From Leptolyngbyaceae cyanobacterium (GTDB lineage: Bacteria; Cyanobacteriota; Cyanobacteriia; Phormidesmidales; Phormidesmidaceae), in contig CBDHHL010000053.1 of the NCBI GenBank assembly GCA_965263355.1, positions 1 to 52,076 on the forward strand: 52,076 bases of DNA, given 5' to 3'. The notes beneath the pieces were generated by a model. It was given only the letters and a program-made list of their open reading frames with translations. It was not told where the DNA came from and did not search any database. Numbering within the stretch: position 1 is the stretch's first letter; every line of letters starts with the position of its first letter. The translations under genes were made by a program, and so were the position numbers. Below, in pieces: positions 10,934 through 48,404 of this stretch.

Positions 10934-10979
10934 AAATCCCCTGTAGGGGTGTTGCATGCAACGCCCCTACAGGGGATTT
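10934..10979. repeat. GTAG-type REP palindrome, possible bidirectional terminator
   Basis: 46-bp near-perfect palindrome AAATCCCCTGTAGGGGTGTTGCATGCAACGCCCCTACAGGGGATTT between convergent genes. Confidence 0.8.
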
Positions 10980-18485: not shown

Positions 18486-18891
18486 TTATAAGTCCCTAGG
18501 AAGGTCCTGTCTAGTATAAGGGAAAGTCTATCCTGGCAGCCACTGTCAGAACATTTCACAAATAGCACCACCAGCTTTTCTCTGAAGTAACTTAACATCA
18601 GTGAAAGTGAAGAGCTATGACTTTATCAATCATAGCGACTTTCAGATAACTAACATTGTCCCTTACAATCACAGACAACTAGTTGGCGATAAAGCAAGCA
18701 ACCTGTAGAACACGGTTTTGATTTGCGACATTTAGCTCTTTTTGCCAAAGTCTAGGAAATCATAGACATTCATAATGATTTAGCACTTTCAGCGGGAGTT
18801 TCCGCCAATATGTGAGGGGCATGTGGATCTTAACTGCCTGAATCTGGGCAAACTTGCAGAAGTGCGCATAGCAACGGATTGTAGTGATGCC

Positions 18892-20640
18892 ATGAATAAA
18901 CAACAGCCAATCTCCATCCCGATTGGCCTTAAAGTCTTTGGAATTGCTGTGAGCTTACTCGGGCTATTACTGCTCGTTGCGTATAACTCCCACCAAAAAC
19001 TACGCCAACTCCGAAACGAGATTGGAGATCTGGCTGAATATATTATTCCGATCACCAATCTTGTCGATGAAGTTGATACCCAGGCACTTGAGCAAGAGAT
19101 CCATTTAGAGAGGATTTTAAAGCTCTATGAGGCGGAGCCACTGGACTTAGAACGCATTACCCATGAAAAACAACAATTCGAAGACCGCAGCCAGCAGGTA
19201 GATGTTGAGATTGCAGCAGCCATTAACCTTAGTCAGGAAGCGGTTACTCAAGCAATAATACAGGCCGATCGGGAGGAGTTAAGTCGAATTGGACCCCAAC
19301 TCACCCAGATTGAACAAGAGCATCAAGATTTTTATAATCACGCGGTTAAACTGCTGCAGCAACTGGAGGCAGGAGAACGAGGGAAGCAAATTTATACATT
19401 AGAACTGCAAATTGAGGCAGAGGAGGATCATCTCAATCAAGAGATTGAAGCAATCCTGGATGAACTTGGCAGCTACACCATTCATATGGTGCAATTGAGT
19501 AAACACCATCAAGCAGAGGTGCTGCGGAATAGCGTGTTGATTACAATAGGTGCCGTCGGACTAGGTTTGGCCTATGCTTCAGGCTTAACCTTCAGTATTG
19601 TTCATCCTTTGCGACACCTAACTAATCAGGTTCAAAGCTTGCAACAAGGTCAAGCGATCAACACCTTAAACCTCAAATCCAATGATGAAGTTGGACTTTT
19701 AAATGACACCTTTAATCATTTACTAAAGGAACTAGAGCAGAAAGAAAAACTTAAAGCCTTGTTTGGCAAGTATGTTGATCCTCGCGTGGTTAAACAACAT
19801 GAACAGCAGGGCAAGGCCTTACAAACGACTGGTGAGAAACAAATTGTGACTGTCTTAATGTCAGACATTGATGGATTTCAAAGCATTTCACAGACCCTGA
19901 TGCCTGAACAATTAGTAGATGTGATCAATCGTTATCTGAGTCTGTTATCTGCCACTGTGTCTGCTCAACACGGCTTCATCGAATTTGTAGATACGGTCAT
20001 CAAAGGATTTTGGACACCCCCTTTTGTGAGTGAAACTGCTCATGCCCAAGCTGCTTGTGAGGCTGCACTTGATCAAGTTGCAAAATTACCACAGCTGCGA
20101 CAGCTAATCCAACAGGCGACTAATGCGACAGCTGCTATTGCTGAAATTGATTTACATATTGGTCTGGCTACAGGTCCGTTAATCCTAGCCAATATAGGGC
20201 CTGAGTGGGCAACCGTTTATAGTGTCCTAGGCGATACCGTAAATACTGCTGCCCGTCTTAGGGGGGCTGCTAAGCAGTTTGGTATTCAAATCTTATTATT
20301 AGAAGAAACTCAGCAGCAGGTTCAGACAACGATGGTGACTCGTGAAATCGGCTTAGTTCAGGTTGTCGGTAAAGATGACAAACTTCGTGTTTTTGAACTT
20401 TTAGGTCGTCAAGGTGAGGTATCACCTAAAAAAATAGAATGGATAACAGCTTTCAGTCAGGGTTTAACCGCTTATCGTCAAAAAGCGTGGGATGAAGCAA
20501 CAGCAAAATTTGAGGCTTGTGTGCAGCTATGCCCTCAAGATAGACCGACCCAACACTATCTCCAGTCAATTGAGACATTGCGAGAGCAGGTCTTATTGAC
20601 AGACTGGGACGGTGTCTGGAAATTAACTCAGAAAGCATAA
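18892..20640 (+). CDS. Membrane-bound class III nucleotide cyclase, subunit A (2 TM, helical sensor, HAMP, cyclase domain, TPR-like tail)
   Basis: FGKYVDP.VV, VTVLMSDIDGF, IGLATG, YSVLGDTVNTAARL, WDGVW; KFIGD motif altered to EFVDT; ATG 18892 preferred. Confidence 0.9.
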   Translation: MNKQQPISIPIGLKVFGIAVSLLGLLLLVAYNSHQKLRQLRNEIGDLAEYIIPITNLVDEVDTQALEQEIHLERILKLYEAEPLDLERITHEKQQFEDRSQQVDVEIAAAINLSQEAVTQAIIQADREELSRIGPQLTQIEQEHQDFYNHAVKLLQQLEAGERGKQIYTLELQIEAEEDHLNQEIEAILDELGSYTIHMVQLSKHHQAEVLRNSVLITIGAVGLGLAYASGLTFSIVHPLRHLTNQVQSLQQGQAINTLNLKSNDEVGLLNDTFNHLLKELEQKEKLKALFGKYVDPRVVKQHEQQGKALQTTGEKQIVTVLMSDIDGFQSISQTLMPEQLVDVINRYLSLLSATVSAQHGFIEFVDTVIKGFWTPPFVSETAHAQAACEAALDQVAKLPQLRQLIQQATNATAAIAEIDLHIGLATGPLILANIGPEWATVYSVLGDTVNTAARLRGAAKQFGIQILLLEETQQQVQTTMVTREIGLVQVVGKDDKLRVFELLGRQGEVSPKKIEWITAFSQGLTAYRQKAWDEATAKFEACVQLCPQDRPTQHYLQSIETLREQVLLTDWDGVWKLTQKA

Positions 20641-20662
20641 AGAATTGAATATAAGCACTGTG

Positions 20663-22351
20663 ATGAAGTTTCTGCCGAAGCTATCAATTGGCCTCAAAAT
20701 CTACAGTCTGGTGGCAATGATTCTGATCATTTTGATGGGAGTTGCACTCAGTAATTATCAGCGTATGCGACGGGTAAATCAGGATGTTTTAGTTCTGGCA
20801 GAATATACAGCTCCCCTCAAAAAACATATTGCCAGTATTAATATCTATGCCCTGGAACAGGAAGTTCATTTTGAAAGAATGCTACGTATCCTTGAAGCTG
20901 AAATGCCTGACAAAGAACATTTTGGCCTTGAACAGCAACGCTTTGAAACCTTGGGCACGTTGGTGGATGAAGAGTTAGAGTCAGCCTTAGCCTTGGCTGA
21001 AACGGCGATGACCAATACATCTGATTCTCCGACAACTGTTCAATTTGCGCGGCTCAGCCCCTGGTTAGAGATTGTCGAAGAAGATCATCAAGACTTTCAG
21101 GATCAGGCCCTAAAAATTGTTAATTTGGTGCAAACGGAGCAAGGCGAAGCCGCCCGTTTACTGGATATTGAATTAGAAAGACGCGAAGAAATTTTCAATC
21201 AACGTATCTATGCAATTTTGCTTGATTTAGACCAATTTGCCGCCAAAACGGCGCAAACTATCGAGGTCCACGAGCAAAATTTGGTACGATTCAATCTCTG
21301 GCTGACAGCAATTGCCACAATTTCAGGGTTGGCTCTGGCAGCTATCCTGACTTTACGCCTGACCAACCCAGTTAAAAAGCTCGTTCAGGGGGCTCAATTA
21401 GTAGAGGCAGGTAATCTCGATACCGAGGTTGAAGTTCAATCTGGCGATGAGATTGAAACCCTAGCCAACTCTTTTAACATCATGATTCGGGATGTGCGTC
21501 AAAAACAAATCCTCAAAGAAGCCTTTGGGCAATATATTGATCCCCGCATTGTTGAGACTTTGATTGCTGAGCAAGCAGAGCAACAGGGACGAAAGGAAGT
21601 CATGACCGTGTTTTTCTCTGATTTGGCTAAGTTCAGTACAATCAGTGAACTGCTCACACCAACGCGCCTGGTTACCCTGATTAACCAGTATCTGACCCTG
21701 GCTACAGTTCCCATTATAGAAACACAGGGGGTGATTGATAAATTCATTGGGGACGCGATCGTTGCATTTTGGGGGCCACCCTTTGTGGCAGCTGCTGAAC
21801 ATGCACAACTTGCCTGTCAGACAGCCTTGGAACAAGCAACCCAATTACGCAAACTTCAGCGGCTCTTACCCGAGATTATTGGTATCCGCAAAGGAATCCC
21901 CAAGTTAGGTGTTCGCGTTGGACTCGATACAGGTGAGTTAGTACTTGGCAATATTGGGACTGAACATTTACAGTCCTATACCGTCATGGGACGAGCTGTA
22001 GAAATTGCTGAGCAACTGGAAAGCGCCAATAAGCGTTATGGCACACAGATTTTACTGACCGAACGGACGCGACAATTAGCAGGAGATGCCATTGAAGTAC
22101 GTGAAATTGATTGTCTACCAATTGGTGATAACAATACTCTCTTACCGATCTATGAATTGTTGGCCTGTGGCATTGAGTTAGATGAAGCAGTCGCAGAATT
22201 AAGAGACTATTTCAGCCAGGGGCTGCAGGCTTATCGGCAAGAAGATTGGTCAATAGCGCGATCGCACTTTGAAAGCTGCCTTAAGATTGAGCACAATGAC
22301 GGCCCTGCAAAATTTTATCTCAAGCAATTAAGTCAGTTAGCTAGGGCCTAA
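20663..22351 (+). CDS. Membrane-bound class III nucleotide cyclase, subunit B (same architecture)
   Basis: FGQYIDP.IV, TVFFSDLAKF, IDKFIGDAIVAFWG, RVGLDTG; GDTVNxAxR motif altered to GRAVEIAEQ; ATG 20663 preferred. Confidence 0.9.
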   Translation: MKFLPKLSIGLKIYSLVAMILIILMGVALSNYQRMRRVNQDVLVLAEYTAPLKKHIASINIYALEQEVHFERMLRILEAEMPDKEHFGLEQQRFETLGTLVDEELESALALAETAMTNTSDSPTTVQFARLSPWLEIVEEDHQDFQDQALKIVNLVQTEQGEAARLLDIELERREEIFNQRIYAILLDLDQFAAKTAQTIEVHEQNLVRFNLWLTAIATISGLALAAILTLRLTNPVKKLVQGAQLVEAGNLDTEVEVQSGDEIETLANSFNIMIRDVRQKQILKEAFGQYIDPRIVETLIAEQAEQQGRKEVMTVFFSDLAKFSTISELLTPTRLVTLINQYLTLATVPIIETQGVIDKFIGDAIVAFWGPPFVAAAEHAQLACQTALEQATQLRKLQRLLPEIIGIRKGIPKLGVRVGLDTGELVLGNIGTEHLQSYTVMGRAVEIAEQLESANKRYGTQILLTERTRQLAGDAIEVREIDCLPIGDNNTLLPIYELLACGIELDEAVAELRDYFSQGLQAYRQEDWSIARSHFESCLKIEHNDGPAKFYLKQLSQLARA

Positions 22352-24716: not shown

Positions 24717-25532
24717 ATGGGCAGTCGTAAAACCCTTTGGCGCGTTTGGACAACCCTATTGTTAGGAATGGGGTGTATGGCTGCGATCGCATGCACCCTC
24801 AACTCCCAAGACCTAGCATCCAGCTCCACTATGACGACATCTGATACCTATGGCTGCTACCGTGCAGGCCAGTGTGACCATGCCCTTGCCAGTTCTCAAC
24901 ACTGCCAAGCAGGCCGCGATTACACCATTACCAGCAGTCAGCAATTTAAGACTAATGTCGTGGTGTTATCAATCCACGGTGGCAAAATTGAACTTAAAAC
25001 CAGCCACATTAGCCATGCACTCGCCAAGCGGTACCAATGGAATCGCTATGACTTTGCTGGCCATGGCACAGCTCAATGCCTCTCAGGTCGTCGTAACTTT
25101 GATGTGCTCCATGTGACCTCTTCTAAATTTGACGAACCCCAGGCCCTAAAACTGGTGCGTGCTCATCCCAAGGCTGTTTCTATCCACGGGTATGGAAACC
25201 ATAATGGTTACCCTCCAGGCACCATTTGCGTCGGTGGACGAAACGCAACCCAGATCGCCGAATTCATTCGTCACATTGAAAACAATCAAGAGAGCTTTTC
25301 TGCCTATACCCTTATCCCCGTTGATGCCAGACATTTAAAGCCAGGGGATGTGTGCGCAGGCTTGGGAGGGACTGCTCCCCGTAACATTGTCAATCAAACG
25401 TCTACAGGCATGGGGCTGCAACTAGAACTAAGTGCGCAAATGCGTAATGATTTGACTAATCGCCAAAGCCCTCAGACAGCAGAGCTGCAAGATATTGTCT
25501 ATGGCGCTATTTACCAGGCCCTGTCTCTATAA
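24717..25532 (+). CDS. Poly-gamma-glutamate hydrolase (PghP/DUF867 family), predicted lipoprotein
   Basis: SIHGGKIE..TS, LHVTS..FDEP, VSIHG, NIVN, GLQLELS..MR; signal peptide ending in AIAC. Confidence 0.85.
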   Translation: MGSRKTLWRVWTTLLLGMGCMAAIACTLNSQDLASSSTMTTSDTYGCYRAGQCDHALASSQHCQAGRDYTITSSQQFKTNVVVLSIHGGKIELKTSHISHALAKRYQWNRYDFAGHGTAQCLSGRRNFDVLHVTSSKFDEPQALKLVRAHPKAVSIHGYGNHNGYPPGTICVGGRNATQIAEFIRHIENNQESFSAYTLIPVDARHLKPGDVCAGLGGTAPRNIVNQTSTGMGLQLELSAQMRNDLTNRQSPQTAELQDIVYGAIYQALSL

Positions 25533-25548
25533 AAGAAAACTTGATAAA

Positions 25549-25604
25549 TTGACCGATTTCTAACCGAATTATTCCCCAGATTTTACCACCAGGTTGCCTA
25601 GGGT
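25549..25604 (+). promoter_or_regulatory. 11-bp-period imperfect direct repeats before a -10-like TAGGGT; candidate OmpR-family binding array
   Basis: TTGACCGATTT CTAACCGAATT ATTCCCCAGAT TTTACCACC upstream of ATG 25632. Confidence 0.4.
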
Positions 25605-25631
25605 GAAGGTGTCGTTACATCTATCCTCGTT

Positions 25632-26300
25632 ATGACACCTTTGTACGTTAAACTCTCTGCTGCAGTCCTCGGAACCCTTACCATTACAACAACAGCATTA
25701 GGCATGACCTGTAACGCTAGTGAGATGCCAGATTGTCCTGATACATTTGATGGCTTAAATCTGAGCGACCAGCAGCAGACTCAGCTATGGCAGCTGGAAG
25801 AAGATTTAGATCGCCAAATTGAGACCATTATGCCTGTTTCTGACGAAACAGAAATGGCGATTGAGCAGCTGGAGATACAAGTTGAGCAACAGATAAGTTC
25901 ACTATTATCTTCACAGCAAACGCAACAGATTGAGGAGCTAGATACCTGGATAGATCAAGAGTTCATGGCGATTGTACCTGAATGGTTTGAAGAAGAGGAG
26001 GAAGAGCAAGAGTCCCCCTTAACGCCAGATCAAGTCCAAAAAGTAGACGCCCTTGAAAAAGACTATGAGCAGCGATTACAGAACCTGTTAACTGCCGAAC
26101 AACAGGAGGAGATTAAACGTTTAGAAGAAAAGCTAGATGAGGACATCGACGCCCTGCTACCTGAACCGAGTACTGACCAGGAGGAAAAAATTATCGCTGC
26201 TGAAGAAGCCTTTGAAGATAAGGTCAGTCAGCTCCTTACCCCTGAACAATTACAAATCGTTGAACAAAATCTTACCTGTGAGTGGCCTGACGATGAGTAA
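25632..26300 (+). CDS. Secreted, highly acidic Spy/CpxP-like (LTxxQ repeat) protein
   Basis: Signal peptide; LNLSDQQ, LSSQQ, LTPDQ, LTAEQ, LTPEQ repeats; very Glu/Asp-rich including EEEEEE. Confidence 0.7.
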   Translation: MTPLYVKLSAAVLGTLTITTTALGMTCNASEMPDCPDTFDGLNLSDQQQTQLWQLEEDLDRQIETIMPVSDETEMAIEQLEIQVEQQISSLLSSQQTQQIEELDTWIDQEFMAIVPEWFEEEEEEQESPLTPDQVQKVDALEKDYEQRLQNLLTAEQQEEIKRLEEKLDEDIDALLPEPSTDQEEKIIAAEEAFEDKVSQLLTPEQLQIVEQNLTCEWPDDE

Positions 26301-26331
26301 ATTCCTTTGCGAAATATAAGAGTTTCCTAAC

Positions 26332-26367
26332 CCTGCTAGGGGCATTGCATGCAATGCCCCTAGCAGG
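26332..26367. repeat. REP-type perfect palindrome between convergent genes
   Basis: CCTGCTAGGGGCATTGCATGCAATGCCCCTAGCAGG, 36 bp. Confidence 0.85.
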
Positions 26368-26380
26368 AAAACCTATCCCG

Positions 26381-27388
26381 CTAAGACAATGCCCATATAC
26401 CCACCATGGATGTAGCAATCAAAAGGGCCATGCACCGCAAAACAGGTTTTGTGCGATACAAAATAGCATCATTAACACAGGACAACATAGCAATATTAAG
26501 TAAGTAAGAGCTACCATATCCAATATGCTGAGCCATGGCGGGTACCGTAGCGTGTAGCCACAGCTCACTCCCCCACAGGTAAAGTGTACTCAGACACAAC
26601 ACCACGACATAACGTTTTAATCCTACGGTGAGTGTGCGTTCACAAAACCATTGGGCGATTTGGTACACCAAAACACAGCCGATTAAAAAATGTAGGCCCA
26701 TCAAGGAATCAAACATGGTTAGGGCAATAATGGGCGTGACCATATAGCCCCCAGACCGAATATCTTGATGACGATAGATCAGATATCCGAGCCCTAAGGA
26801 GAGAAAGTAGTGAATCAGTGGGTATTGAAGTTGCATTGCAGGATTGGCCTCTAGATTGATCCCTGGATTGATCGCAGTGTGAACCAGAGATGAATTACCC
26901 AAGCTAAGACCCAAGATATGTAGCAATCCCAAAATCCCTAAAACACCTGCCAGGGTAAGCCCTGTACATAGAACAACCGCTCGACTTACCCGACCAACAT
27001 TTTGTTTCCCCAGATTAAAGGCAATCACACCAGGGAGTATGGTACCGATTTGGGTATCTAGGGAAAAGTCTAGCCAGCCAAAATAGTTATAACCGAGGGC
27101 AACCAGGGTAGAAATTGTAAGGGAAAGACAGGCCAAAATATACATAGGAGTGCGACGTTTGTAATCAGTTCGTCGCAGCCATTGCTGATATATCCAATAC
27201 ACCAAAACGGATAAGCCCAATACTGTTACAAACCATAGGGGTGAAATGGTGAGCAACACCACTAAACTACCCGGTACAATTAGTCCTCCAGGGATAACAC
27301 CGTAGGTGCTGCGATATTGAATGGCGATAAAAACACCGACGAGTAAGGCAAAGTGATGAATGCTAGATGTGTTGAGGAGAGCAAGCAT
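26381..27388 (-). CDS. pgsC: Poly-gamma-glutamate synthase membrane subunit with two tandem CapC domains
   Basis: YGVIPGGLIVPG and IG.ILPGVIA; second repeat DIRSGGYMVTP; 335 aa from ATG 27388; directly downstream of pgsB. Confidence 0.85.
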   Translation of the reverse strand: MLALLNTSSIHHFALLVGVFIAIQYRSTYGVIPGGLIVPGSLVVLLTISPLWFVTVLGLSVLVYWIYQQWLRRTDYKRRTPMYILACLSLTISTLVALGYNYFGWLDFSLDTQIGTILPGVIAFNLGKQNVGRVSRAVVLCTGLTLAGVLGILGLLHILGLSLGNSSLVHTAINPGINLEANPAMQLQYPLIHYFLSLGLGYLIYRHQDIRSGGYMVTPIIALTMFDSLMGLHFLIGCVLVYQIAQWFCERTLTVGLKRYVVVLCLSTLYLWGSELWLHATVPAMAQHIGYGSSYLLNIAMLSCVNDAILYRTKPVLRCMALLIATSMVGIWALS

Positions 27389-27431
27389 GATGTTGAATCG
27401 TAAAAGTTTATTGTTGAGTTGTTCTTTTCCA

Positions 27432-27458
27432 TAGGGGCATTGCATGCAAGGCTCCTAC
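27432..27458. repeat. Degenerate REP palindrome in the pgsB-pgsC gap
   Basis: TAGGGGCATTGCATGCAAGGCTCCTAC. Confidence 0.7.
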
Positions 27459-27470
27459 GGAACTCACTTA

Positions 27471-28763
27471 TCAGGCTGCCAGAGCCAATTGCAATTCAGG
27501 TTGCTGCGTAGGCATTTCGATTGTAAGAGGTTGTTGTACTAGCTCTTGTTTCAGCTGTTGTTCTGATTGTTGAGCTAAGTATTCGTCAAAGAAGTGTAAT
27601 AATGTTTCCGCTTGTTGTGTGTGAATATTGACAGTGCCGATTAACAAAATTGGCTGATCAGTCATACCTGCCGTAATCTTGTTAAGTAACTCTGGGGCAC
27701 TTGCCTGTTTATAGGCCGTAGAATTACCTAAGTTAACAATGAGATCGCACCGTTCTTCATCCGAAAAAACAGCATTGACTCCGTTCTCATAGTCGCCAAA
27801 GGTGACAATCCGATCAAATTTCAGTTCTTTGGCAATGGTTGCAAATAGTTCCACCCGCGTTGGTCGATCTAAGCGATTATTCAAAATCACCACTTTACGA
27901 TGGTGAGGATACTGTTCAAACAGCCGTTGACAGATAAAAATAAAGCTTTCGCGATCATTCACTGCAAACAGATTGGCCCAGGCTACCTGCGCATTGGTCA
28001 CCTGCATCTGCTGCATTGAAAAGGCTCCTGGATCGGGCAATGCTGTTTGGATGGCCCTGAGGGCCGTGGAACGTGGCACCTTGAGACAGGTGGCTACCTG
28101 CAGGGCAATGGCGATGTTTTCTGCGATCGCAAAATGGTCAAACCCCTGCATCTCCTCCGGCTGCACAAGATTTGCGTGGGCTGTTAACAGTTTGGAACCT
28201 TTCTCTGCGGCCCGTTTCTCCAAAATACTCAATAACTCTGGGTTTGTTTCCGATGTGATCAATATGCCGTTGGTCGGAATTGTTACCGCTAACGATTCCG
28301 CAATTTCCGGTAACGTTTCCCCCATATAATCCGTATGATCCAGACGAACATTGGTAATAATACCAATATGGGCCTGCATTACTTTTTGTTCTAGCCATTC
28401 GGCATAGACCGGATTGACGGCCATACACTCCATCACCACTGCATCTGCCCTCTGATGCATAAACTGTTTCAAAACAGAGACCTGTTCATTAACGTTGGCA
28501 GCCCCCTTACGCTCAATCGCTTGATCCATCCCATTGGGCAACAACACTCGGGCGGCTGTTCCAGTCGTTTTCCCATAGGTGTGGTAACCCGCTGCCCTAA
28601 AAACAGCACTTACATAGCGGGTAACCGTAGATTTTCCCCGAATTCCATTCACATGAACTCGCCATTGAATATGTTGACGTTGTCGAGTAAATTGGGTAGA
28701 AAAACGGAGAGCACCCAACGCACTAACCAAAATGCCTGTGCAAGAAAACGCAAATAAAATCAT
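27471..28763 (-). CDS. pgsB: Poly-gamma-glutamate synthase catalytic subunit (Mur-ligase fold)
   Basis: VHVNGIRGKSTVTR, GKTTGTAAR, ANVNEQ, ECMAV.P, ITNVRLDH.D.MG, PDPG, N.FAVND.ES, NR.DR..R. Confidence 0.93.
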   Translation of the reverse strand: MILFAFSCTGILVSALGALRFSTQFTRQRQHIQWRVHVNGIRGKSTVTRYVSAVFRAAGYHTYGKTTGTAARVLLPNGMDQAIERKGAANVNEQVSVLKQFMHQRADAVVMECMAVNPVYAEWLEQKVMQAHIGIITNVRLDHTDYMGETLPEIAESLAVTIPTNGILITSETNPELLSILEKRAAEKGSKLLTAHANLVQPEEMQGFDHFAIAENIAIALQVATCLKVPRSTALRAIQTALPDPGAFSMQQMQVTNAQVAWANLFAVNDRESFIFICQRLFEQYPHHRKVVILNNRLDRPTRVELFATIAKELKFDRIVTFGDYENGVNAVFSDEERCDLIVNLGNSTAYKQASAPELLNKITAGMTDQPILLIGTVNIHTQQAETLLHFFDEYLAQQSEQQLKQELVQQPLTIEMPTQQPELQLALAA

Positions 28764-29018: not shown

Positions 29019-29702
29019 CTACGTTGATATTTGCTTTAGGCGATACCCCACACCGTGGACAGTCTCAATTAAATCCGAGGGAGCCCCAGCCTTACGTAGC
29101 TTCTGACGTAAACTTTTGAGGTGGGATTTAACCGTTTCCTCATCGGGTAAAACATCCATATCCCAGCATTGATCGATCATCACAGCACGACTCAACACCC
29201 GTCGACCATTACGCAGAAACAGGGCCAATAAACTAAATTCCTTGGGGGTCAATCGCAGAGATTCGCCGTTATAGAAAACCTCATGGGTTGCTGGATCCAG
29301 CTGCACCCGCTCCCAGGTGAGCATGGAACTAACCTCACCTAAATTGCCGCGTCGCAACAGCGCCCGTAAACGGGCCAGCAGCTCTAACAAGTCAAAGGGT
29401 TTGACCACATAGTCATCGGCTCCAGCATCTAGGCCCGCTACTTTATCTGTATTGGTATCCCGTGCCGTTAACATCAAAATAGGCATACGTTTACCAGCCT
29501 CCCTTAATTGCTGGCAAAGATGAATACCATTAATTTTAGGCAACATCACATCGAGAATTACCAGGTTATACTCCAGGTCAGCTGCTTGGATCCAACCCAT
29601 CTCCCCATCGGTTACCCAATCGACAATATAGCCCTCATCGGTCAAGGCCTCTGTTAAACTGTCACCAAGCTGTTGATCATCTTCAACTAAAAGAATACGC
29701 AT
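29019..29702 (-). CDS. OmpR/PhoB family response regulator
   Basis: LLVEDD, ILDVMLP, GADDYVVKPF, LTPKEF, IETVHGVGYRL. Confidence 0.95.
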   Translation of the reverse strand: MRILLVEDDQQLGDSLTEALTDEGYIVDWVTDGEMGWIQAADLEYNLVILDVMLPKINGIHLCQQLREAGKRMPILMLTARDTNTDKVAGLDAGADDYVVKPFDLLELLARLRALLRRGNLGEVSSMLTWERVQLDPATHEVFYNGESLRLTPKEFSLLALFLRNGRRVLSRAVMIDQCWDMDVLPDEETVKSHLKSLRQKLRKAGAPSDLIETVHGVGYRLKQIST

Positions 29703-29849: not shown

Positions 29850-31481
29850 ATGAAGATTCCCCCCATGCAAAAGTGGCTTACCCTTGGTTTTGGGATTGCC
29901 CTAATCATGCTGCTAATGAATGCAATTCTATTGCGTCAAAGCGTTATAGAACGAGAGCAACCCCTGGATTTTTATGAAGAAACATTGGACAATCACGACT
30001 ATTTTAACGACTTGGTGACTGTGATAGCTTTAGCAGAAGTCAGTCAGCAAACTTACCTGGAAACGGGCCAACAAGATGCCTTAAATACACTATATGAGCA
30101 AATAAATATTCTTGAAGAAAACCGTACAGACCTGTTGGCCGACGAGGAGCTACGCGATAGGCTCGCCTTGGAACCATCGTCCAATAGTGAAAACATTGAG
30201 GATGGAGACTTTGAAAGTCTAGACGAGTTTGACGATGAACCTCCTGAAGAGTTCGAAGAGGCGGAGCCGGAGGACATGGATTATCTTGAATCTTTAGTAG
30301 CATTGGATAGTGCCTTAGAAACCTATATCCAGCTTTTGTATAAAGGCATTGAACAATACGATACTGATAGCCTGGATGACACAATTCGCCTGCAGCTTGC
30401 TCAGCAAGTGAACGAGGCTCAATTGGGGATTCAACAGTCTGTAATTGAGCTGATGGATATTGAACTAGGAGACCCTCAAGAGATTGAATCCGACATCCGT
30501 ATCCAGATCAACAATGCTCTCTGGATCGGATGGCTAATGTTGGGTATCAGTGGTGGGATATTAAGTATTTTATATGGATGGCTCATACACACTTTAACTA
30601 AACGCGATCATAGAGAGCACAGTCTACGTAGCACCAATCACACCCTTGCTCAAAAGTTAAAAATAGCAACCAGTCAGCTCCAGACAACACAAACATCATT
30701 AAAAACAGAATTGAATCTGCGCCAAACATTGGAAGCAACCTGTCAGGAAATTGAACAGGCAAAAGAGCTAACCGATCTAAAACTAAATTTCTTTTCCTTG
30801 GCTTCCCATGAACTGCGTACACCTCTCAGCGCTATTTTAGTGTCAGCCCAACTCCTGGATAATCCCAATGCACCCTGGACTGAGGAAAAACGGTCTCGGA
30901 ACCTGCGTCGGATTCAGTCTTCTGCTAAAACAATGACCCAACTTTTGGCTGATATTTTGTTATTAACGCGTGCGGAAGCTGGCAAATTAGAGTTTAATCC
31001 CCAAATGATTGAGCTGCAACAATTTTGTCAACAATTGGTGGAAGAGGTGACGTTTAACACCCAGGCTCAGCACCATATTACAGTTGTACAACATGGACAA
31101 TGTGAGCATGCCTATTTAGATGAGATTTTGCTACGGGCTATGTTAATGAGCCTGTTAACCAATGCGATTAAATATTCTCCGCCAGAAAGTGAGATTCAAT
31201 TTACGATCCGGGGTGAGATAGACCATACAGCTTTTCAAATTCAAGATCAGGGCATTGGGATTCCGCCTGCAGACCAAAAACATTTGTTTGAAACATTTCG
31301 TCGAGGTGCAAATGTGAAGGGGATAACGGGGACTGGTCTAGGGTTGGCCGTTGTCAAAAAATGTCTTGATATCCATGGTGGGTCTATTGATGTGAAGAGC
31401 CAAGTTGGTATAGGCACGAGTTTTACCATAGATATCCCTTGGAGCACTTGGGAGGTCAATCAACTTCAACCAGAAATATAG
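29850..31481 (+). CDS. Sensor histidine kinase (HisKA/HATPase) with a very acidic periplasmic domain
   Basis: 2 TMs; SHELRTPL, NAIKYS, DQGIGI, GTGLGL; divergent from the OmpR regulator. Confidence 0.93.
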   Translation: MKIPPMQKWLTLGFGIALIMLLMNAILLRQSVIEREQPLDFYEETLDNHDYFNDLVTVIALAEVSQQTYLETGQQDALNTLYEQINILEENRTDLLADEELRDRLALEPSSNSENIEDGDFESLDEFDDEPPEEFEEAEPEDMDYLESLVALDSALETYIQLLYKGIEQYDTDSLDDTIRLQLAQQVNEAQLGIQQSVIELMDIELGDPQEIESDIRIQINNALWIGWLMLGISGGILSILYGWLIHTLTKRDHREHSLRSTNHTLAQKLKIATSQLQTTQTSLKTELNLRQTLEATCQEIEQAKELTDLKLNFFSLASHELRTPLSAILVSAQLLDNPNAPWTEEKRSRNLRRIQSSAKTMTQLLADILLLTRAEAGKLEFNPQMIELQQFCQQLVEEVTFNTQAQHHITVVQHGQCEHAYLDEILLRAMLMSLLTNAIKYSPPESEIQFTIRGEIDHTAFQIQDQGIGIPPADQKHLFETFRRGANVKGITGTGLGLAVVKKCLDIHGGSIDVKSQVGIGTSFTIDIPWSTWEVNQLQPEI

Positions 31482-32226: not shown

Positions 32227-33543
32227 TCAGATTTTCCCATCAGCCCGTAGGGGCATCGCATGCAATGCCCCTACGGGATTGTCCCCTACAGGAGTTGGGA
32301 AGGGCAAAATCACACGAATGCGACAGCCAGCACCCGGTGAACTCTTGATTTGACAGATTCCCCCTAATGCGATCGCACGTTCTTTCATTCCCCGTAAACC
32401 AAACCCTGTCGTGTTTTTGCCGGGTTCAAACCCGATACCATTATCCAGTACTTGCACATACAGACTCTGCGGTTTAGTGGATATCTGCACAGATAGCTGG
32501 GTGGCTTGAGCGTGTTTCACCACATTGGTGAGGGCTTCTTGCACAATCCTGTAGGCGGCCAGGCTCAGTTCATCGGACAGTGGCGCAGTGATATTAACCT
32601 CACATGTTGGCGTCATCGGTGTGGATTGACAGACCTGATGCACCAATTCAGTAATCGCAGCCTGTAGGGGTTTATCGGGTTGAGGAGAGTCACGCAGGGC
32701 CGCCACAGCCCGTGAAACCTCTTTGAGTGCCTGATACGAGGAATCTTTAGCTTGCAGGAGATAAGATTTTGCCCGTTCAGTATCTTGTTCCCAAAATAAA
32801 AGCACATTTTCTAGCAGAATCGTTTGAGCCGTCAAAGCATGTCCAAGGGAGTCATGGATTTCACGGGCAATACGATTGCGTTCCTGCAATGCGGCCTGGC
32901 CTTCAACCTGAAGCGCATATTGTTGCAGCTGGGTATGGGCAATTTCCAGCTGCTGTTGATTCCTATGAACGCTGAGTAAGGCATCCACCAGTAAGAAAAC
33001 AAACAGCAATGCCAGGGTAAAGAGAATAATCACATTGGTCTGGAACACGCTCACTTGCCAGGACTCAGGGGTCGATATGAGTCGGGACAAATTTTTACTA
33101 ATGGCCGTTTGGCCCAATGTCAGTGAGGCAAATAAATGCAGGCCAAACGTAACAACTGCTACCACGAGTCGCCCTTGGGTCTGAAAGATTTGGCAGCTGC
33201 GGATCACGATGACTAGTCCCAGGAGCGGGATCATCCGCATCATCAGGGGATTATCGAGGCAACGCATCACCAAAATGCCGAAGAGGCTGAGTTCGACGGC
33301 GGTGTAGAAAAGCTTAGCCCGCAGCTGAGTCAGGGGCAGATACAGCCCCATTAAACCAATCAAACCAAATAGGAGCAGTTCTAGCCAGGGCACCTGAATC
33401 GTCTGATAGAGAACCGTTGCGGTAACTCCAATCAATGCTCCCATACTGAGTAAAATCCACTCAACATACAGTAGTAGACGCAAGGGTCTGGCAGCTGCAC
33501 GATTTGGGGATAGTTGGGCGGGTGGATTGAGTAGCATTAGCAT
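32227..33543 (-). CDS. Membrane sensor histidine kinase (HisKA_3)
   Basis: ERNRIAREIHDSLGHALT, RIVQEALTNVVKHA, DNGIGF, GFGLRGM.ER. Confidence 0.93.
   Translation of the reverse strand: MLMLLNPPAQLSPNRAAARPLRLLLYVEWILLSMGALIGVTATVLYQTIQVPWLELLLFGLIGLMGLYLPLTQLRAKLFYTAVELSLFGILVMRCLDNPLMMRMIPLLGLVIVIRSCQIFQTQGRLVVAVVTFGLHLFASLTLGQTAISKNLSRLISTPESWQVSVFQTNVIILFTLALLFVFLLVDALLSVHRNQQQLEIAHTQLQQYALQVEGQAALQERNRIAREIHDSLGHALTAQTILLENVLLFWEQDTERAKSYLLQAKDSSYQALKEVSRAVAALRDSPQPDKPLQAAITELVHQVCQSTPMTPTCEVNITAPLSDELSLAAYRIVQEALTNVVKHAQATQLSVQISTKPQSLYVQVLDNGIGFEPGKNTTGFGLRGMKERAIALGGICQIKSSPGAGCRIRVILPFPTPVGDNPVGALHAMPLRADGKI
32244..32277. repeat. GTAG-type REP palindrome inside the 3' end of the kinase ORF
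   Basis: CCCGTAGGGGCATCGCATGCAATGCCCCTACGGG. Confidence 0.8.
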
Positions 33544-37026: not shown

Positions 37027-37752
37027 TCAAATCTTTTTTTCTTTAATGTCAATATACTCAAATAAAGTTGATACTCTGGTGGGCTCGACGATGCTGCCAT
37101 CCCGAAAGGTAATTGTACGTCGACAACGCTGGGCGACTTCCGGATCGTGGGTGACCATCACCAGGGTCATCCCCTGCTGGTTTAGCTCAGCAAAAATATC
37201 CATAATTTCCTGACTCATCTGGGAGTCCAGGGCTCCTGTTGGTTCATCCGCCAAGAGTAATTTGGGTTGATTGACAATGGCCCGTGCAATAGCCACCCGC
37301 TGCTGCTGTCCACCAGAAAGCTGATTAGGCCGATTGGCCAGTCTGTCTCCCAAACCCACCCGCTGCAGCGCTGTAATAGCCCGAGACTCTCGTTCACCAG
37401 CGGGTACCCCAGCATAGATCATGGGCAAAACAACATTCTCCACGGCTGTCAGTTGATGGAGTAAATGAAACTGTTGAAAAATAAAGCCAATTTTACGATT
37501 ACGAATACTGGCTAATTGCTTAGCGGTTAAGTGTGAGATCTCCACACCGTCCAACCAATAGTCTCCCTGGGTGGGCCTATCAAGACAACCAATCATATTC
37601 ATCATCGTTGACTTCCCCGATCCAGACGGTCCCATAATGGCGCAATATTCTCCTGACTCAATGGTCAGATCAACAGACTTTAAGGCATACACCTGGAGGT
37701 CATCTACACCATAGGTTTTAGATATATTTTGGAGTCGAATAAGATAATTCAT
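37027..37752 (-). CDS. ABC transporter ATP-binding protein (MacB/LolD type)
   Basis: GPSGSGKS, LSGGQQQR, LADEPTGALD. Confidence 0.95.
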   Translation of the reverse strand: MNYLIRLQNISKTYGVDDLQVYALKSVDLTIESGEYCAIMGPSGSGKSTMMNMIGCLDRPTQGDYWLDGVEISHLTAKQLASIRNRKIGFIFQQFHLLHQLTAVENVVLPMIYAGVPAGERESRAITALQRVGLGDRLANRPNQLSGGQQQRVAIARAIVNQPKLLLADEPTGALDSQMSQEIMDIFAELNQQGMTLVMVTHDPEVAQRCRRTITFRDGSIVEPTRVSTLFEYIDIKEKKI

Positions 37753-38978
37753 GTTCGCAACGCCACAATCGGATCAAGATTCGCCGCCCTTTGAGCAGGC
37801 GCAATACCAAAAATCAAACCAATACTGCCCGACACAGTAAACGAAACCATAACAGCGCTCAGGCTAAACACAGCTTCCAAGGGACTAAATAAGGCTAGGC
37901 ACACCACCCCAACCAGGCCCACACCAATGCCAATCATGCCCCCCGTTGCCGCCAGAATGACAGCCTCAATGGTGAACTGGGCTAAAATATCTGCCCCGGT
38001 TGCCCCAATTGCCTTACGAAGACCAATTTCCCCCGTGCGTTCTGTCACCGAAACCAACATAATATTCATAATGCCAATTCCTCCCACCAAGAGGGAAATA
38101 CCAGCGGTAAACGCCAGCACCAGCACCAAAATGTCTGTGATGCTGCTAGACTTCTCAAGCAATTCTTGTTGACTTTGCACCACAAAGTCATCCTCTCCCT
38201 GCAAAATGTTGTGACGCAACCGCAACAGATTTCTGATTTGGTACATGGCTGCATTTGTCATGTCCGGGCTTTCCAAAGACACTGAAATTACCTGCACAGT
38301 AGGGCTAATCTTGCCGGTCTCCTGACCTGTTAACTGACTCGCCATCACATTAATTGGAATGTAGACCAGTTCATCCTGGTTTTGGCCAAACGAAGAACCT
38401 CGTTCTTCCACAACGCCGCTGACGGTAAAACTTAGGTTACTAATCCGAATTTTGCGACCGATCGGCTCCTGGTTAACAAACAAGGTACGAGCAATTTCAC
38501 TACCCAGAACAGCCACCCGTGCATTGGTTTGCAGATCAATCGGACTAAAGAACTGTCCTTGGGACATCTGCACATCGCGTACTACCAAGTAGTCTGGTGT
38601 GGTGCCCATAATGCTGGCCTGAGTCTCTGCTGCCCCTTGGGTGATACGTAAACGCGTATTCTTCTGAGGCGCGATCGCACCCACCGCCAACACTTCTTGA
38701 GTAATCGCTTCAGCATCCGCTAAAGTCAGAGTATTGGCCTGGGCTGCACCAGCCAGCGGCCCCCGCTGAGCATCACCAGGGGCAATAAACAACAGATTGG
38801 TGCCTAAAGATTCAAATTGTGCCGTGACAAACCCTTGGGCGGCTTCTCCTGCGGCTACCATGGCAATCACAGAGGCATTACCGATGATAATCCCTAGCAT
38901 GGTGAGACCGCTTTGCAGTTTATTGGCCGCCAGGGTTTTAAAGGCCATCTTGGCATTTTCGAGAACATTAAATCCCAT
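37749..38978 (-). CDS. ABC transporter permease (MacB/FtsX type)
   Basis: LTMLGIIIG, LLVGGIGIMNIMLVSVTERT.EIG.RKAIGA, PA..AA.LDPI.ALR. Confidence 0.95.
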   Translation of the reverse strand: MGFNVLENAKMAFKTLAANKLQSGLTMLGIIIGNASVIAMVAAGEAAQGFVTAQFESLGTNLLFIAPGDAQRGPLAGAAQANTLTLADAEAITQEVLAVGAIAPQKNTRLRITQGAAETQASIMGTTPDYLVVRDVQMSQGQFFSPIDLQTNARVAVLGSEIARTLFVNQEPIGRKIRISNLSFTVSGVVEERGSSFGQNQDELVYIPINVMASQLTGQETGKISPTVQVISVSLESPDMTNAAMYQIRNLLRLRHNILQGEDDFVVQSQQELLEKSSSITDILVLVLAFTAGISLLVGGIGIMNIMLVSVTERTGEIGLRKAIGATGADILAQFTIEAVILAATGGMIGIGVGLVGVVCLALFSPLEAVFSLSAVMVSFTVSGSIGLIFGIAPAQRAANLDPIVALRT

Positions 38979-39013
38979 TGGTTTCCAGAGTAATTATCTT
39001 CAGAATATTTCGA

Positions 39014-39262
39014 GAGGCTGTTTAGAAAACGTAGTTTAGGCTGTCGATGGGGTGTTTAAAGATGTTGCTTGGGGTCCCTCCGAGTTCCCCTAAAACCCCT
39101 GGTTAGGGCCGGAACGCCGCCCTAAGACCCAACGTACTGAGTTATCCCTAATTGCATTTAGTTGGAGTTACGGCAGGGGCGATGATAAATATTCTGGATC
39201 GATTTTTGCGGGAGATTTAGTATACGATACTCAAATCATAAAGCTGTTTTTTAATCACTCCT
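39014..39262. mobile_element. Possible MITE-like non-coding insertion inside the efflux operon
   Basis: About 250 bp non-coding; imperfect terminal inverted repeats GAGGCTGTTTAGAAAAC / GTTTTTTAATCACTCCT; internal TTAGGGC...GCCCTAA hairpin. Confidence 0.35.
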
Positions 39263-39265
39263 TAG

Positions 39266-40654
39266 TTAAGGAAAGGGTAGCCCAGAGCTACCAGAGCGTT
39301 TTATTTCTGGTGGCAGCTCCAAAAAAATTCGATCACCTACTTCCAGTCCCTGCAAAATTTGAGTTCTCCCGGCTTGGGTGATACCAACGGTGACGGGTTG
39401 AAAGTCAGCATTTCCCTTACTATCTGGCATCTGTACGCCGAGCTGTCCGTCTTGGGTTGCGATCGCAACCGTAGGCACCATCAAGGCATCAGTTAATGTC
39501 TCACCAATAAAAGTGGCATCTACCGTCATACCTGATCTCAGGTGGTCAGCCCCCGTCAACAACTCAACAACAACTTGAAAAGTGGTAACATTATTTTCAA
39601 TAATTGCTTCTGGGGCAATGCGCTGCACTCGGCCTGCATAGACCTGATTAGGAAATGCTTCTGCTACAATTTCAACCGATTGGCCCACCTGAATTTGACC
39701 AATATTAGCTTCTAAAATATCAATCTCGACTTCCAGCCCCGAAGACAATGCCAAAATTGAACTGGATGTGGCGGAGGCCGTAGCAGTAGCCGTCGTGGTG
39801 GGGGTGACAATTGCCCCAATGGTGGCGTACGTTTGGGTAACATATCCGGCAAAGGGAGCGTGGATATTTGCGTCTGCCAGTTCTGTTTCAATTACTTGAA
39901 TCTGAGCTTGGGCCGCTGCCACATTTGCTGCCGCCGCTGCAATCTCTTCAGGACGCGAACCACTGGTGGTTGCCTTAAGTTGTTGCTCCACTTCACTAAA
40001 ATTCGCCACGGCATTTTGGGCTTCATTTACATATTGATCCAGATCATTTTGAGAAATTGCCCCCTGTCGCGCTAAATTCTCAAACCGCTCTAGACGATTT
40101 GTTGTCAAATCAACATGGGATTGAGCAGATGCCAAACGGGCTTCAACCTGGAGGATATCCTCTTGTCGATTACCCGCCAGAATCCTGGCATAATCAGCTT
40201 CGGTCTGGTCAAGCTGCGCTTTTCGTTGTTGTAGCTCAGCCGCCAAACTACCAATTTCCATGCGAGCAACCACCTGACCTGCTTCAACGAGATCGCCTTG
40301 CTGAACATAGAGATCGGCTAGACGACCTGTTGTTTTTGGACTGAGGTTGACGGTATCCTTTGAAATCACAGTGCCGTTGCCCTCAACCCTGATCGCCAAG
40401 GGTTCAAGGCTTACAGGTACGGTCAATGATTCCAGTAACTCAGCTTGGTTAGCCTCACGCTTGACAATTGGTATAGATGGGAAACGTAGCGCAATGCCAA
40501 CACCTAGACGTAACAACAAACTGAGCATGAATGCTCTCCTCAGCCACAAAAGCCAGGGACGGCGAGGCGCTGTTTTCTCAGAGGTTATCGGTGGTGGGGC
40601 TGATTTTTCAGGTGCGATCGCTAGTGTACTACTAGCATCAATATGATCATTCAT
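39266..40654 (-). CDS. Efflux periplasmic adaptor subunit (MacA/HlyD type)
   Basis: N-terminal TM, NLSPK..G.L..L.V.QGD.V, coiled coil, I.APF.G, LRSGM.V. Confidence 0.92.
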   Translation of the reverse strand: MNDHIDASSTLAIAPEKSAPPPITSEKTAPRRPWLLWLRRAFMLSLLLRLGVGIALRFPSIPIVKREANQAELLESLTVPVSLEPLAIRVEGNGTVISKDTVNLSPKTTGRLADLYVQQGDLVEAGQVVARMEIGSLAAELQQRKAQLDQTEADYARILAGNRQEDILQVEARLASAQSHVDLTTNRLERFENLARQGAISQNDLDQYVNEAQNAVANFSEVEQQLKATTSGSRPEEIAAAAANVAAAQAQIQVIETELADANIHAPFAGYVTQTYATIGAIVTPTTTATATASATSSSILALSSGLEVEIDILEANIGQIQVGQSVEIVAEAFPNQVYAGRVQRIAPEAIIENNVTTFQVVVELLTGADHLRSGMTVDATFIGETLTDALMVPTVAIATQDGQLGVQMPDSKGNADFQPVTVGITQAGRTQILQGLEVGDRIFLELPPEIKRSGSSGLPFP

Positions 40655-45845: not shown

Positions 45846-48296
45846 GTGAGCGAGGTGCTACAGCCAAATTTTCAGCTAAATGAAGATTATGCAAGAGCCA
45901 TTAAAGAATATGCCATAGAGCGTTTTGGTAAGCATGAATACTTAGTTGGCTTAACTGGCTGGTTAGTCGATCATCGGAAAATACGCTATAGCGAAAAGCA
46001 AATTGACAGTGCTCTCAAAGGACAACGGTCTCATCGTGATTTGCTCAAGGGACTATGTCGCTTTATTGGTGCTGACCTAAGCAATGCAGTGTCTAGTCCA
46101 AGCTCACGGTCTTTAATAGCTCTTAATCCTCCCAAACCAGGTGATATCACCACAACCATTGGTACATTACAAAGTAATAAGGATATTGACTACATCGTCA
46201 ATAAAATATCTGGAAAAATCAGGTTTTGCTTTGAGGAAGAAGACGCTCCTTGCAGTGATAATCGTTTTACACAAGTTGATTGGATTCAAGATAACTTCAT
46301 TGATCTAGACGTCCTTGAAGTTGAACACTTACCCTCACAGAACCCCGCTGTTCCCAGTGCGAGTGCGCTTCAAAATAACGATGAGGTCAAAAAACACGAT
46401 GAGTATGACGATGAGTATGATCGTCTAAACATTAGGCCTTTGCATGCTCATAAGACAACCAGTCGAAAGTTACTCAAAAAGTACGAACGTGCATTTATAT
46501 ACGGTAATCCTGGTTCTGGAAAGTCAACTTACCTGAGATGGGCTGCTCTCAAATGCCGCGATCAAGACCCATTCGAAAAGCGGTATGTGCCCTTGTTTCT
46601 AGAAGTGCGAAATTTTACTCTTTTGGGGTCTGGCCAAACCCTAATGACCTATTTCGAATCCACCCTAGAAAAGATTGGAATTACCTCAGCTGAGCTAGAA
46701 GCAGTCAGCAGCGATGGCAGGGTATTTTTTATACTCGATGGCGTTGATGAAATTAGTAAAGCTGATTATCGACGCCTTGCAAAAATGATCAGAAGTTTGC
46801 TTACAAACTACAGTAATTGTCGTTTTCTAATTAGTTCTAGACTCGGATTTGATGTTCGCTTTCCTGGTCTTAAAAAGGTCATTATTTCTCCTTTTACCTC
46901 GAAGAAACACATACCAAAATTTGTATATAATTGGTTTAGCGGTCTTAAGGACGGAAAGAACAAGGCCGAAATGATGTTGGAAAAGTTCAGGTCTTCTGGT
47001 TACCAAAATATTCGAGAAATTGCTAGACGACCTGTTTTATTGAGGCTGCTATGCATATTATTTGAACAAGATAGCGATTTTCCCACGCGACGGGCAGATG
47101 TTTTTCAACAAGGCATTAATGCTTTAGTACAACAGTCATCTCAAGAACCTCTCAGCACTAATATAGCCGCTCATCCTGAGTTACTGCCTAACGATGTTAC
47201 TCAGATTCTTTGCCGTGTGGCCTATCTTTTCTTTGTTGATATGGAAGGCGATACATTATTCCATACTCAAGAGGTCAAAAATGTTATTCGTAGTTATTTT
47301 CATGAGACTTACAATATTCCCCAAGCGCAGATAGATGACGAACATATCCTCAATTTAATTGAGCAATATAACGGGTTGCTAGTGAGATGGGCCAATACCT
47401 TCTGTTCTTTTTCGCATTTAACATACCAAGAGTATTTTGTTGCTCATCACCTTGTTTATCAAAACCAACAGGAGCTTGTTTATGAGTTCTTTAACAACCC
47501 TCGGTGGAAATTTATTACGGAGCTAGTTGCTGAACTCTTGCCTAATGGGCAGGCTGTCAGTTTTCTTGAAGGATTTAAATCTAATGTGGATACCCTTGTC
47601 AATACTGATGAAAAGATTGAGGACTTTCTTGAAGAATTGAATAGGGGGGCATCCTTAGCTGTACATATAAGTGGAAATCCACATCCATTTACCCCCGTTC
47701 TTATTCGCGCCTGGTATTTAGCGTATGCTGTCGGGGAAGAAACGAGTAAAATTAATGGCTCGCTTCCTAATCGAGACACGTACAGTTTTCCTGACATGTT
47801 TTATGCAACCAGCATGGTCAGCAATGAAATTTTAGAGCTGCATGGCATGGTTTACGACCTATACTACTGCGTTGTTCGTCCAAATTCAGAGTCTGGTAGC
47901 TTGCAAAAGCAGATAAGCAAACTAAAACGACTTTTCAAGACAAAAGATTCTCGCAAGGTCGATACCTTTAAGAGCTGGGAAGACCAGATTAGATATCAGA
48001 TAGATAACAATTTTAATGGTGATAAGGAGCATTGGTGGACAGATAAAAACATTCGTAATGGGTGGAGAAGGCGGGTGATTTCTCTGATGGCAACTCTAGG
48101 AGTACCCTGTACTGATAGTTTGAGTCAAGCACAAACCAAGCAGTTACAAAAGTACTACACAGCTACACATCTTTTTTCAAGGTGTCTGGATCGAGCAGTC
48201 ATCAATGATAAAAAACAGAAAAAACTAGCAAGTTCAATGCTTTTGGTCGAACAAAGCCCGCAGAATAAAGGTGACTATAACAATCAATTTTTTTAA
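45846..48296 (+). CDS. NACHT (STAND) NTPase domain protein
   Basis: Walker A GNPGSGKST, Walker B FILDGVDE, ISSR, P.LL.L.C, FSHLTYQEYF. Confidence 0.9.
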   Translation: MSEVLQPNFQLNEDYARAIKEYAIERFGKHEYLVGLTGWLVDHRKIRYSEKQIDSALKGQRSHRDLLKGLCRFIGADLSNAVSSPSSRSLIALNPPKPGDITTTIGTLQSNKDIDYIVNKISGKIRFCFEEEDAPCSDNRFTQVDWIQDNFIDLDVLEVEHLPSQNPAVPSASALQNNDEVKKHDEYDDEYDRLNIRPLHAHKTTSRKLLKKYERAFIYGNPGSGKSTYLRWAALKCRDQDPFEKRYVPLFLEVRNFTLLGSGQTLMTYFESTLEKIGITSAELEAVSSDGRVFFILDGVDEISKADYRRLAKMIRSLLTNYSNCRFLISSRLGFDVRFPGLKKVIISPFTSKKHIPKFVYNWFSGLKDGKNKAEMMLEKFRSSGYQNIREIARRPVLLRLLCILFEQDSDFPTRRADVFQQGINALVQQSSQEPLSTNIAAHPELLPNDVTQILCRVAYLFFVDMEGDTLFHTQEVKNVIRSYFHETYNIPQAQIDDEHILNLIEQYNGLLVRWANTFCSFSHLTYQEYFVAHHLVYQNQQELVYEFFNNPRWKFITELVAELLPNGQAVSFLEGFKSNVDTLVNTDEKIEDFLEELNRGASLAVHISGNPHPFTPVLIRAWYLAYAVGEETSKINGSLPNRDTYSFPDMFYATSMVSNEILELHGMVYDLYYCVVRPNSESGSLQKQISKLKRLFKTKDSRKVDTFKSWEDQIRYQIDNNFNGDKEHWWTDKNIRNGWRRRVISLMATLGVPCTDSLSQAQTKQLQKYYTATHLFSRCLDRAVINDKKQKKLASSMLLVEQSPQNKGDYNNQFF

Positions 48297-48404
48297 GGAC
48301 TTTTCCTAGGGACTGGACTCTCATGTTTGAATTTCCTTGAGCTTGACCAGACCTAACATTTAGCACTTTAATCTTCAGTTAAGATATCAATCAGTGGAGA
48401 AAAT

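Follow-up and report, generated by a model that had tools for sequence, protein, structure and literature searches.

A reduced pgsBC locus with a double CapC and a PghP-family hydrolase in a Leptolyngbyaceae cyanobacterium, a probable gamma-polyglutamate system

The systems closest to the locus described here are PgsBCAE with the hydrolase PgdS in Bacillus subtilis, where pgdS lies directly behind pgsBCA (PMC4928254, available text), and CapBCADE of the B. cereus group. The pair capB and capC is counted as a sufficient system for poly-gamma-glutamate (gamma-PGA) in the accessible part of Rendueles 2017 (PMC5542703), and CapsuleFinder two-gene capBC systems without capA are described for Fusobacterium, Francisella, Corynebacterium and Chroococcidiopsis thermalis PCC 7203, the last on a plasmid that appears in the S1 Dataset entries available from that paper. 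The zinc hydrolases PghP (phage PhiNIT1) and PghL (YndL) degrade the polymer, and PghL releases L-Glu oligomers only, cutting within L-Glu stretches (PMC6506827, the portion at hand). We analyzed a stretch of 52,076 nucleotides from a Leptolyngbyaceae cyanobacterium (contig CBDHHL010000053.1, hereafter the window), which carries genes for an intact PgsB, a doubled PgsC and a PghP-family zinc hydrolase. Judged by its sequence, the locus is a real, intact and reduced member of an uncharacterised cyanobacterial PgsBC variant, and it probably directs the synthesis of a gamma-PGA that is predicted to be L-rich and to be cut or released outside the cytoplasm.

Four open reading frames (ORFs) had been read at this place in an earlier note on the same DNA as a minimal gamma-PGA synthesis and turnover locus, and all four were found in the window. 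The pgsB (capB) gene (27471..28763, minus strand) encodes an ATP-dependent gamma-glutamate ligase of 430 amino acids with an N-terminal membrane anchor. PgsB scored 323 bits against TIGR04012 (equivalog cut-off 222.7) and far lower, at 50 bits or less, against FolC and Mur models. Its motifs GIRGKS, KTTG, ECMAV, NVxxDH and NxRxDR align with those of annotated CapB/PgsB proteins of Bacillus, Corynebacterium, Streptomyces and Chroococcidiopsis; a sequence search of the PDB gave no match. The adjoining gene (26381..27388, minus strand; the ORF as called reaches 27445) encodes PgsC2, which is a tandem double CapC: it matched PF14102 with 86.9 bits (cut-off 27) in two separate stretches, its halves align to one another (92.6% probability, E 4.5e-7) and its model is all-helical with a predicted local distance difference test (pLDDT) score of 90. 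The expectation of a genuine cyanobacterial PgsB and PgsC was thereby borne out, and the gene pair is the one that PMC5542703, in its available part, takes as sufficient. Searches with PgsC2 returned only a chance match among PDB sequences and no Foldseek match at E <= 0.001, the best hit, VIA (Z 7.6), being an ordinary helical match. Because the first ATG of pgsC sits within a repeated palindrome, the real start is likely at 27388; homologs begin aligning from about residue 20.

The hydrolase gene (24717..25532, plus strand) encodes a protein that matched PF05908 with 123 bits and the PDB sequences of YndL/PghL and PghP with E 2e-17 and E 9e-11. All nine PghL residues that were checked are kept (H87, E92, H157, H132, T134, S135, N223, E237, R243). 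The His-Glu-His zinc site, the catalytic Glu and the H-x-T-S and Arg171 substrate residues of PghP and PghL are present, and the substrate residues named in the available part of PMC6506827 match those of the window protein, so the proposed PghP-type hydrolase appears catalytically intact. It differs from PghP and PghL in its N-terminal export signal and five conserved cysteines, which are features of its clade, and in that this clade is cellular with no phage member found. The signal had been called lipoprotein-like; export is indeed predicted, and a signal-peptidase-I-like motif was matched in 10 of 11 relatives, but the lipobox (A-I-A-C26) is not a strict match and Cys26 is not kept in relatives. 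A second proposal, that the enzyme is a domesticated phage hydrolase, found no support in the form of a recent domestication: the closest relatives are cellular (cyanobacteria and a gammaproteobacterial symbiont) at 45-61% identity, the phage matches stay at or below 38% among the 20 listed, no viral contig matched the PghP or PgsB profiles, and no phage family was seen among the window ORFs scanned. A tubeworm symbiont, Ca. Endoriftia persephone, belongs to the cyanobacterial PghP clade (protein cluster of P0131), which points to transfer across phyla.

Like the Bacillus systems, the locus combines PgsB equivalog motifs, an adjoining CapC partner and a hydrolase beside the synthase. It departs from them in that its CapC is doubled (about 335 versus 149 amino acids, although PgsC of Corynebacterium is also double-length), in that the hydrolase is of the PghP type and convergent, and in that the host is a two-membrane phototroph. 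The Bacillus-type operon of capA and capE with capD or pgdS is not found at the locus. As the earlier note had reported, no CapA, CapD or CapE family was recognised; this result comes from a Pfam scan of 39 window ORFs of at least 120 amino acids, CapE being of a smaller size class.

The locus was compared with related pgsB loci. After removal of duplicates, of L124 (a broken locus), of the seven loci in the sister group, of loci whose stretch did not show pgsC and of distant ones with a PgsB score <500, there were 44, which formed 33 clusters when grouped at a PgsB identity of 90%. In its usual form the cassette combines pgsB-pgsC2 with a secreted peptidase and with an adaptor that resembles Alg44 and has PilZ and membrane-fusion domains. 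Since the profiles were built from the same loci, which favours recall within the clade, the following counts apply to that clade: the adaptor was detected in 24 of the 33 clusters (16 of the 19 with enough flank), a peptidase family that we call F5 in 12, an NlpC/P60-like family (F4) in 9 and PghP in 1. Of the same clusters, 14 have a CapA-like gene. One predicted peptidase was present in 22 of the 33 clusters and two types in none. The adaptor (for example L035:11390-13177 and L091:15414-17168) combines a PilZ domain, a membrane helix and a membrane-fusion domain (Pfam PilZ and HlyD), as in the Alg8-Alg44 machinery for Pseudomonas alginate, and Alg44 is the best PDB match of its PilZ domain (E 1.3e-3). 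It pairs with an amide ligase and not with a glycosyltransferase, and it may bind cyclic di-GMP (c-di-GMP). The motifs RxxxR and D/NxSxxG occur in most of 19 adaptor rows, are degenerate in some, and the PilZ domain is missing in L006 and L007. Locus L006 itself lies on a HIP1-free contig, with a 70%-identical pgsB and nearby genes that look baseplate- or contractile-injection-like by eye. In a sample of 401 genomes of one order, searched with a cyanobacterial PgsB profile, pgsB was found in 18 genomes (two of them known beforehand), and the adaptor in 14 of these 18 versus 2 of the other 383 (Fisher p 1e-20, ignoring kinship). In those two, which are small, possibly incomplete assemblies, F5 adjoins the adaptor and no PgsC2 was found. 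To call the locus minimal, as in the earlier note, is an overstatement, given that the usual cassette also has an adaptor and a peptidase and that a CapA-like gene lies at another place in G001, the closest genome. PghP as the standard release enzyme is not supported either, since it occurs in one cluster of 33. Adaptor, F5 peptidase and PghP pairing are not mentioned in the 30 of 68 PGA rows of PMC5542703 that were covered.

F5 proteins are about 350 amino acids long, and their genes directly follow pgsC, not only in cyanobacteria but also in distantly related bacteria (L019:10264-11307, L012:4444-5493, L051:10204-11220 and others). They often have a twin-Arg-like N-terminus, carry the motifs ExPH..D, xHGF and HxE[LI], and gave no Pfam, NCBIfam or PDB sequence match. 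A comparison with the PghP clade by hhalign reached 63.9% (E 6.6e-5) and put two His and one Glu residue into the same register, compared to below 0.5% for four control profiles; a smaller alignment gave 12.7%. Atlas assigned F5 to the PghP family with a score of 0.88. F5 is a candidate PghP-like zinc hydrolase family and likely a distant PghP homolog. The assignment of F4 to NlpC/P60 is weak, with E values of 0.025-0.13 and a PDB match at E 1.1. A CapA-like gene was present at the locus in all 9 clusters with the NlpC-like family and in none of the 13 with F5 or PghP. Genome-wide, 8 of 21 genomes with pgsB gave no match for a CapA-like gene, including one in which pgsB lies on a 5.3-Mb contig, so that pgsBC without any CapA-like gene, as anticipated, does occur. 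The CapA of one relative gave a weak match (E 3e-9) to the MslH epimerase model, and long CapA-like proteins of 685-800 amino acids with extra domains are encoded beside pgsB at L005:4782-7145 and L003:5755-7812.

The window and locus L001 (74% PgsB identity) have neither adaptor nor F5 at the locus. The adaptor profile gave no match in the window at E 1e-6, and HlyD/ABC genes at 37027-40654 do not match it. In both loci a regulator-kinase pair lies upstream of pgsB. In the window it comprises an OmpR-type response regulator directly upstream of pgsB (29019..29702, minus strand), a candidate regulator whose counterpart in L001 shares 84% identity and the same position, and a divergent histidine kinase (29850..31481, plus strand), also syntenic. 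The kinase has a very acidic sensor region, as does its counterpart in L001 (L001:2687-4408), where the ORFs of kinase and regulator are arranged head to head with overlapping starts. The window/L001 subclade nests with adaptor-bearing loci (ultrafast bootstrap, UFBoot, 98), which makes loss of the adaptor the simplest reading; the window lineage likely lost the adaptor and F5 and gained PghP. The idea that the hydrolase would be syntenic with pgsBC elsewhere found support in L018, on another branch, with the run pgsB-pgsC2-adaptor-PghP. A second case is indirect: the PgsB, PgsC2 and PghP proteins P0006, P0152 and P0124 each come from a 10,478-base contig, so that PghP probably lies beside pgsBC there too. 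The PgsB and PghP trees have the same branching for the window, this contig and G001.

In cyanobacteria the distribution of pgsB is patchy and mobile. With TIGR04012 as query, none of 400 genomes of a phylum sample was positive besides the centre, a sample that differs from the order sample in make-up, completeness filter and query. A search with window proteins in 17 genomes of the family of G001 found pgsB, and likewise PghP, only in G001. Names among the best 120 of 1012 PgsB matches include Chroococcidiopsis, Microcoleus, Coleofasciculus, Halothece and Xenococcaceae. One copy of pgsB is on a conjugative plasmid, and the cultured C. thermalis PCC 7203 has the full cassette on a plasmid. The cyanobacteria-like PgsB proteins form one clade (47 of 102 tree sequences, UFBoot 83), throughout which pgsB and double capC adjoin, and this clade is sister to loci that also have double CapC. 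Among the sister groups, L031, L032, L034, L037, L049 and L083 have pgsB and double capC on HIP1-poor contigs, some of 1.15-1.24 Mb, which we suspect to be Patescibacteria; two of these loci have an NlpC/P60 neighbour.

With these parts, synthesis could proceed as follows. The membrane-anchored PgsB would join glutamates with ATP, and PgsC2, as two fused CapC units, may supply by itself the membrane site or channel for which single CapC would have to dimerize. Provided that PgsA/CapA acts as a peptide epimerase, to which the weak MslH match of a relative's CapA points, the chain would stay L-rich where CapA is missing at the locus, which would fit the L-specific PghL residues of the hydrolase. 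The exported hydrolase would occupy the slot of PgdS or CapD, and the adjacent two-component pair may control pgsBC. An ancestral cassette would have had the Alg44-like adaptor and the PghP-like F5 peptidase. For passage of the outer membrane, short products through porins, a polymer that stays periplasmic, or an unlinked adaptor can be considered. More tentatively, and with considerable doubt, the cyanobacterial cassettes may represent a hybrid machine, in which PgsB, a fused PgsC dimer and an Alg44-like, c-di-GMP-sensing adaptor carry gamma-polyglutamate out through inner and outer membrane and the release peptidase is exchangeable according to the handedness of the polymer (PghP or F5 for an L-polymer without CapA, NlpC/P60 for a DL-polymer with CapA); the window would then be a case of PghP replacing F5, one of two independent swaps.

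Several observations weigh against these proposals. Adaptor and F5 are missing from the window and were not found in G001 either, which leaves export unexplained. CapA-like genes occur somewhere in 13 of 21 pgsB genomes, G001 included, which weakens the prediction of an L-only polymer. The pattern of peptidase and CapA rests on few independent lineages, and outside cyanobacteria it has counterexamples with NlpC/P60 beside pgsBC without CapA (L034, L037 and a Streptomyces plasmid). The structural model of F5 does not separate PghP from amidases: it is poor (pLDDT 51) and matches PghP with Z 6.1 (root-mean-square deviation 4.0, 122 aligned residues), while amidases tie at 6.8. Further points concern the hydrolase. 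It is on the strand opposite pgsBC with an unrelated gene between, and it starts 26 bp after the stop of a methyltransferase gene, so that it could be the last gene of a GDSL-methyltransferase run. In the order sample PghP was found in 4 of the 401 genomes and in none of the 18 with pgsB, PghP genes are present on Leptolyngbya and Nostoc plasmids without pgsBC in the stretches read, and in G001 PghP and pgsB are on different contigs. These facts, together with the relative in the tubeworm symbiont, would also fit a hydrolase that is an independent scavenger of environmental PGA, nearby by chance or through clustering of acquired genes, next to a pgsBC pair that does make the polymer. PGA scavenging has been proposed in Mamberti 2015 (PMC4497714), whose available part also reports pghP alongside pgsB in 13% of non-Bacillales species. 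We nevertheless consider the scavenger rather unlikely, as PghP adjoins pgsBC in L018 and probably on the 10,478-base contig, pgsB and PghP are co-present in only one of the 17 relatives, G001, and PghP takes the place of F5, its likely distant homolog.

It is quite improbable, in our estimate, that PgsB-PgsC2 makes no free high-mass capsule and instead attaches short gamma-glutamyl chains to a lipid, glycan or peptidoglycan acceptor in the envelope, or makes a periplasmic polymer that stays bound to the cell, with the hydrolase as editor of the product. Such a role would suit the divergent double CapC, which with 53.8 bits stays below the TIGR04011 cut-off of 96.45 (a point that also counts against the reading we favour), the identity of only about 35% between PgsB and Bacillus CapB, and the lack of adaptor, F5 and CapA at this locus; CapB has been proposed to act in glutaminylglycan formation in Halobacteria (bioRxiv 2022.11.30.518518, available text). 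A dedicated membrane-fusion adaptor in most clusters points instead to export of a polymer, and the PghL residues of the hydrolase are spaced for extended gamma-PGA. It seems very improbable that the locus is only a remnant, silent or in decay since the adaptor was lost. The loss of adaptor and F5 and the patchy, mobile distribution with a plasmid copy would agree with decay, and in genome G462 (L101/L124) a pgsB at a contig end has two stop codons and is possibly decaying, but the window ORFs are full length with all motifs present, the subclade of the window PgsB comprises at least 8 proteins at 71-76% identity, and L001 has retained the regulator pair upstream of pgsB. We therefore favour synthesis of gamma-PGA by PgsB and PgsC2 with release by the PghP-family enzyme as the probable function.

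Parts of this picture are in print. The accessible text of PMC4497714 lists PgsB for C. thermalis and Scytonema millei and PghP for Leptolyngbya boryana and Mastigocoleus, and a PGA_cap gene is merely listed in S. elongatus PCC 11801 (PMC6226537). The earlier note knew of no characterised native cyanobacterial example; the genes as such were already in supplements published in 2015 and 2017. The literature searched, subscription papers and the supplements of bioRxiv preprints not included, gave no PGA characterised from a cyanobacterium and no link of PgsB to PilZ, the adaptor or F5, and the logic of the cassette (PilZ adaptor, swappable peptidase, F5) is new within that scope. The cultured strain C. 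thermalis PCC 7203, which carries the full cassette, makes a direct test possible.

Cyanobacterial sheaths are treated as polysaccharide. If a native polyglutamate is confirmed, mats, crusts and epiphytic films would contain a further polymer, one that is rich in nitrogen and binds calcium and metals. The question of how two-membrane bacteria export gamma-PGA receives a testable answer from the cassette, with a link to c-di-GMP through the PilZ adaptor, and F5 may be a new family of hydrolases. For biotechnology, L-PGA could be obtained with a CapA-free synthase of phototroph origin, and photosynthetic L-gamma-PGA from CO2 would be conceivable if the cassette is indeed such a hybrid machine.

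The fourth ORF (25632..26300, plus strand), between the hydrolase gene and pgsC, encodes an acidic protein with 26% Asp+Glu and five L[ST]x[DEQ]Q motifs. It looks Spy/CpxP-like (LTXXQ), all indications being weak: the PF07813 match (E 0.036) is under the cut-off, Atlas gave LTXXQ with 0.82, PDB matches are only weak, and a signal peptide was read by eye only, with no hydropathy window above 1.6. The gene had been grouped with the PGA genes; it was seen beside no other pgsB locus and not found in 5 genomes, and it is probably not part of the PGA system.

A perfect palindrome, which we take to be REP-like, lies between the converging genes (26332..26367) and may be a two-way terminator or an RNA-stabilising hairpin. 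A second copy (27429..27460) lies between pgsB and pgsC and contains the spurious first ATG of pgsC; with the copies at 32245-32276 and near 10947 (about 10947-10966) there are four in the window, and the repeat may also extend the kinase ORF at 32227. A scan of the locus for promoters and terminators gave results at chance level. In two near-identical read runs (X1 and X2) the palindrome, at about 26340-26369, is where the contigs end, and none of them spans the join of hydrolase and pgsC by 31 bases; read depth on the hydrolase and pgsC sides of the break is similar (23.8 and 24 in X1, 24.9 and 31.7 in X2). The HIP1 sites noted inside the hydrolase gene (24783..24790) and pgsB (28123..28130) are present, among 24 in the window versus 0.43 expected. 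Together with the nearest named homologs, which belong to cyanobacterial metagenome-assembled genomes, this abundance points to a cyanobacterial host. The suggestion that the sites mark long residence is not supported, because the likely donors would be cyanobacteria as well, and the part of the window at 17-37 kb has its lowest HIP1 density (0.25 per kb). Elsewhere in the window, two tandem membrane proteins with HAMP and adenylate/guanylate cyclase domains (18823-22351) possibly form a heterodimeric cyclase, and a low-GC gene for a NACHT protein is followed by one for a pentapeptide-repeat protein (45846-49592).

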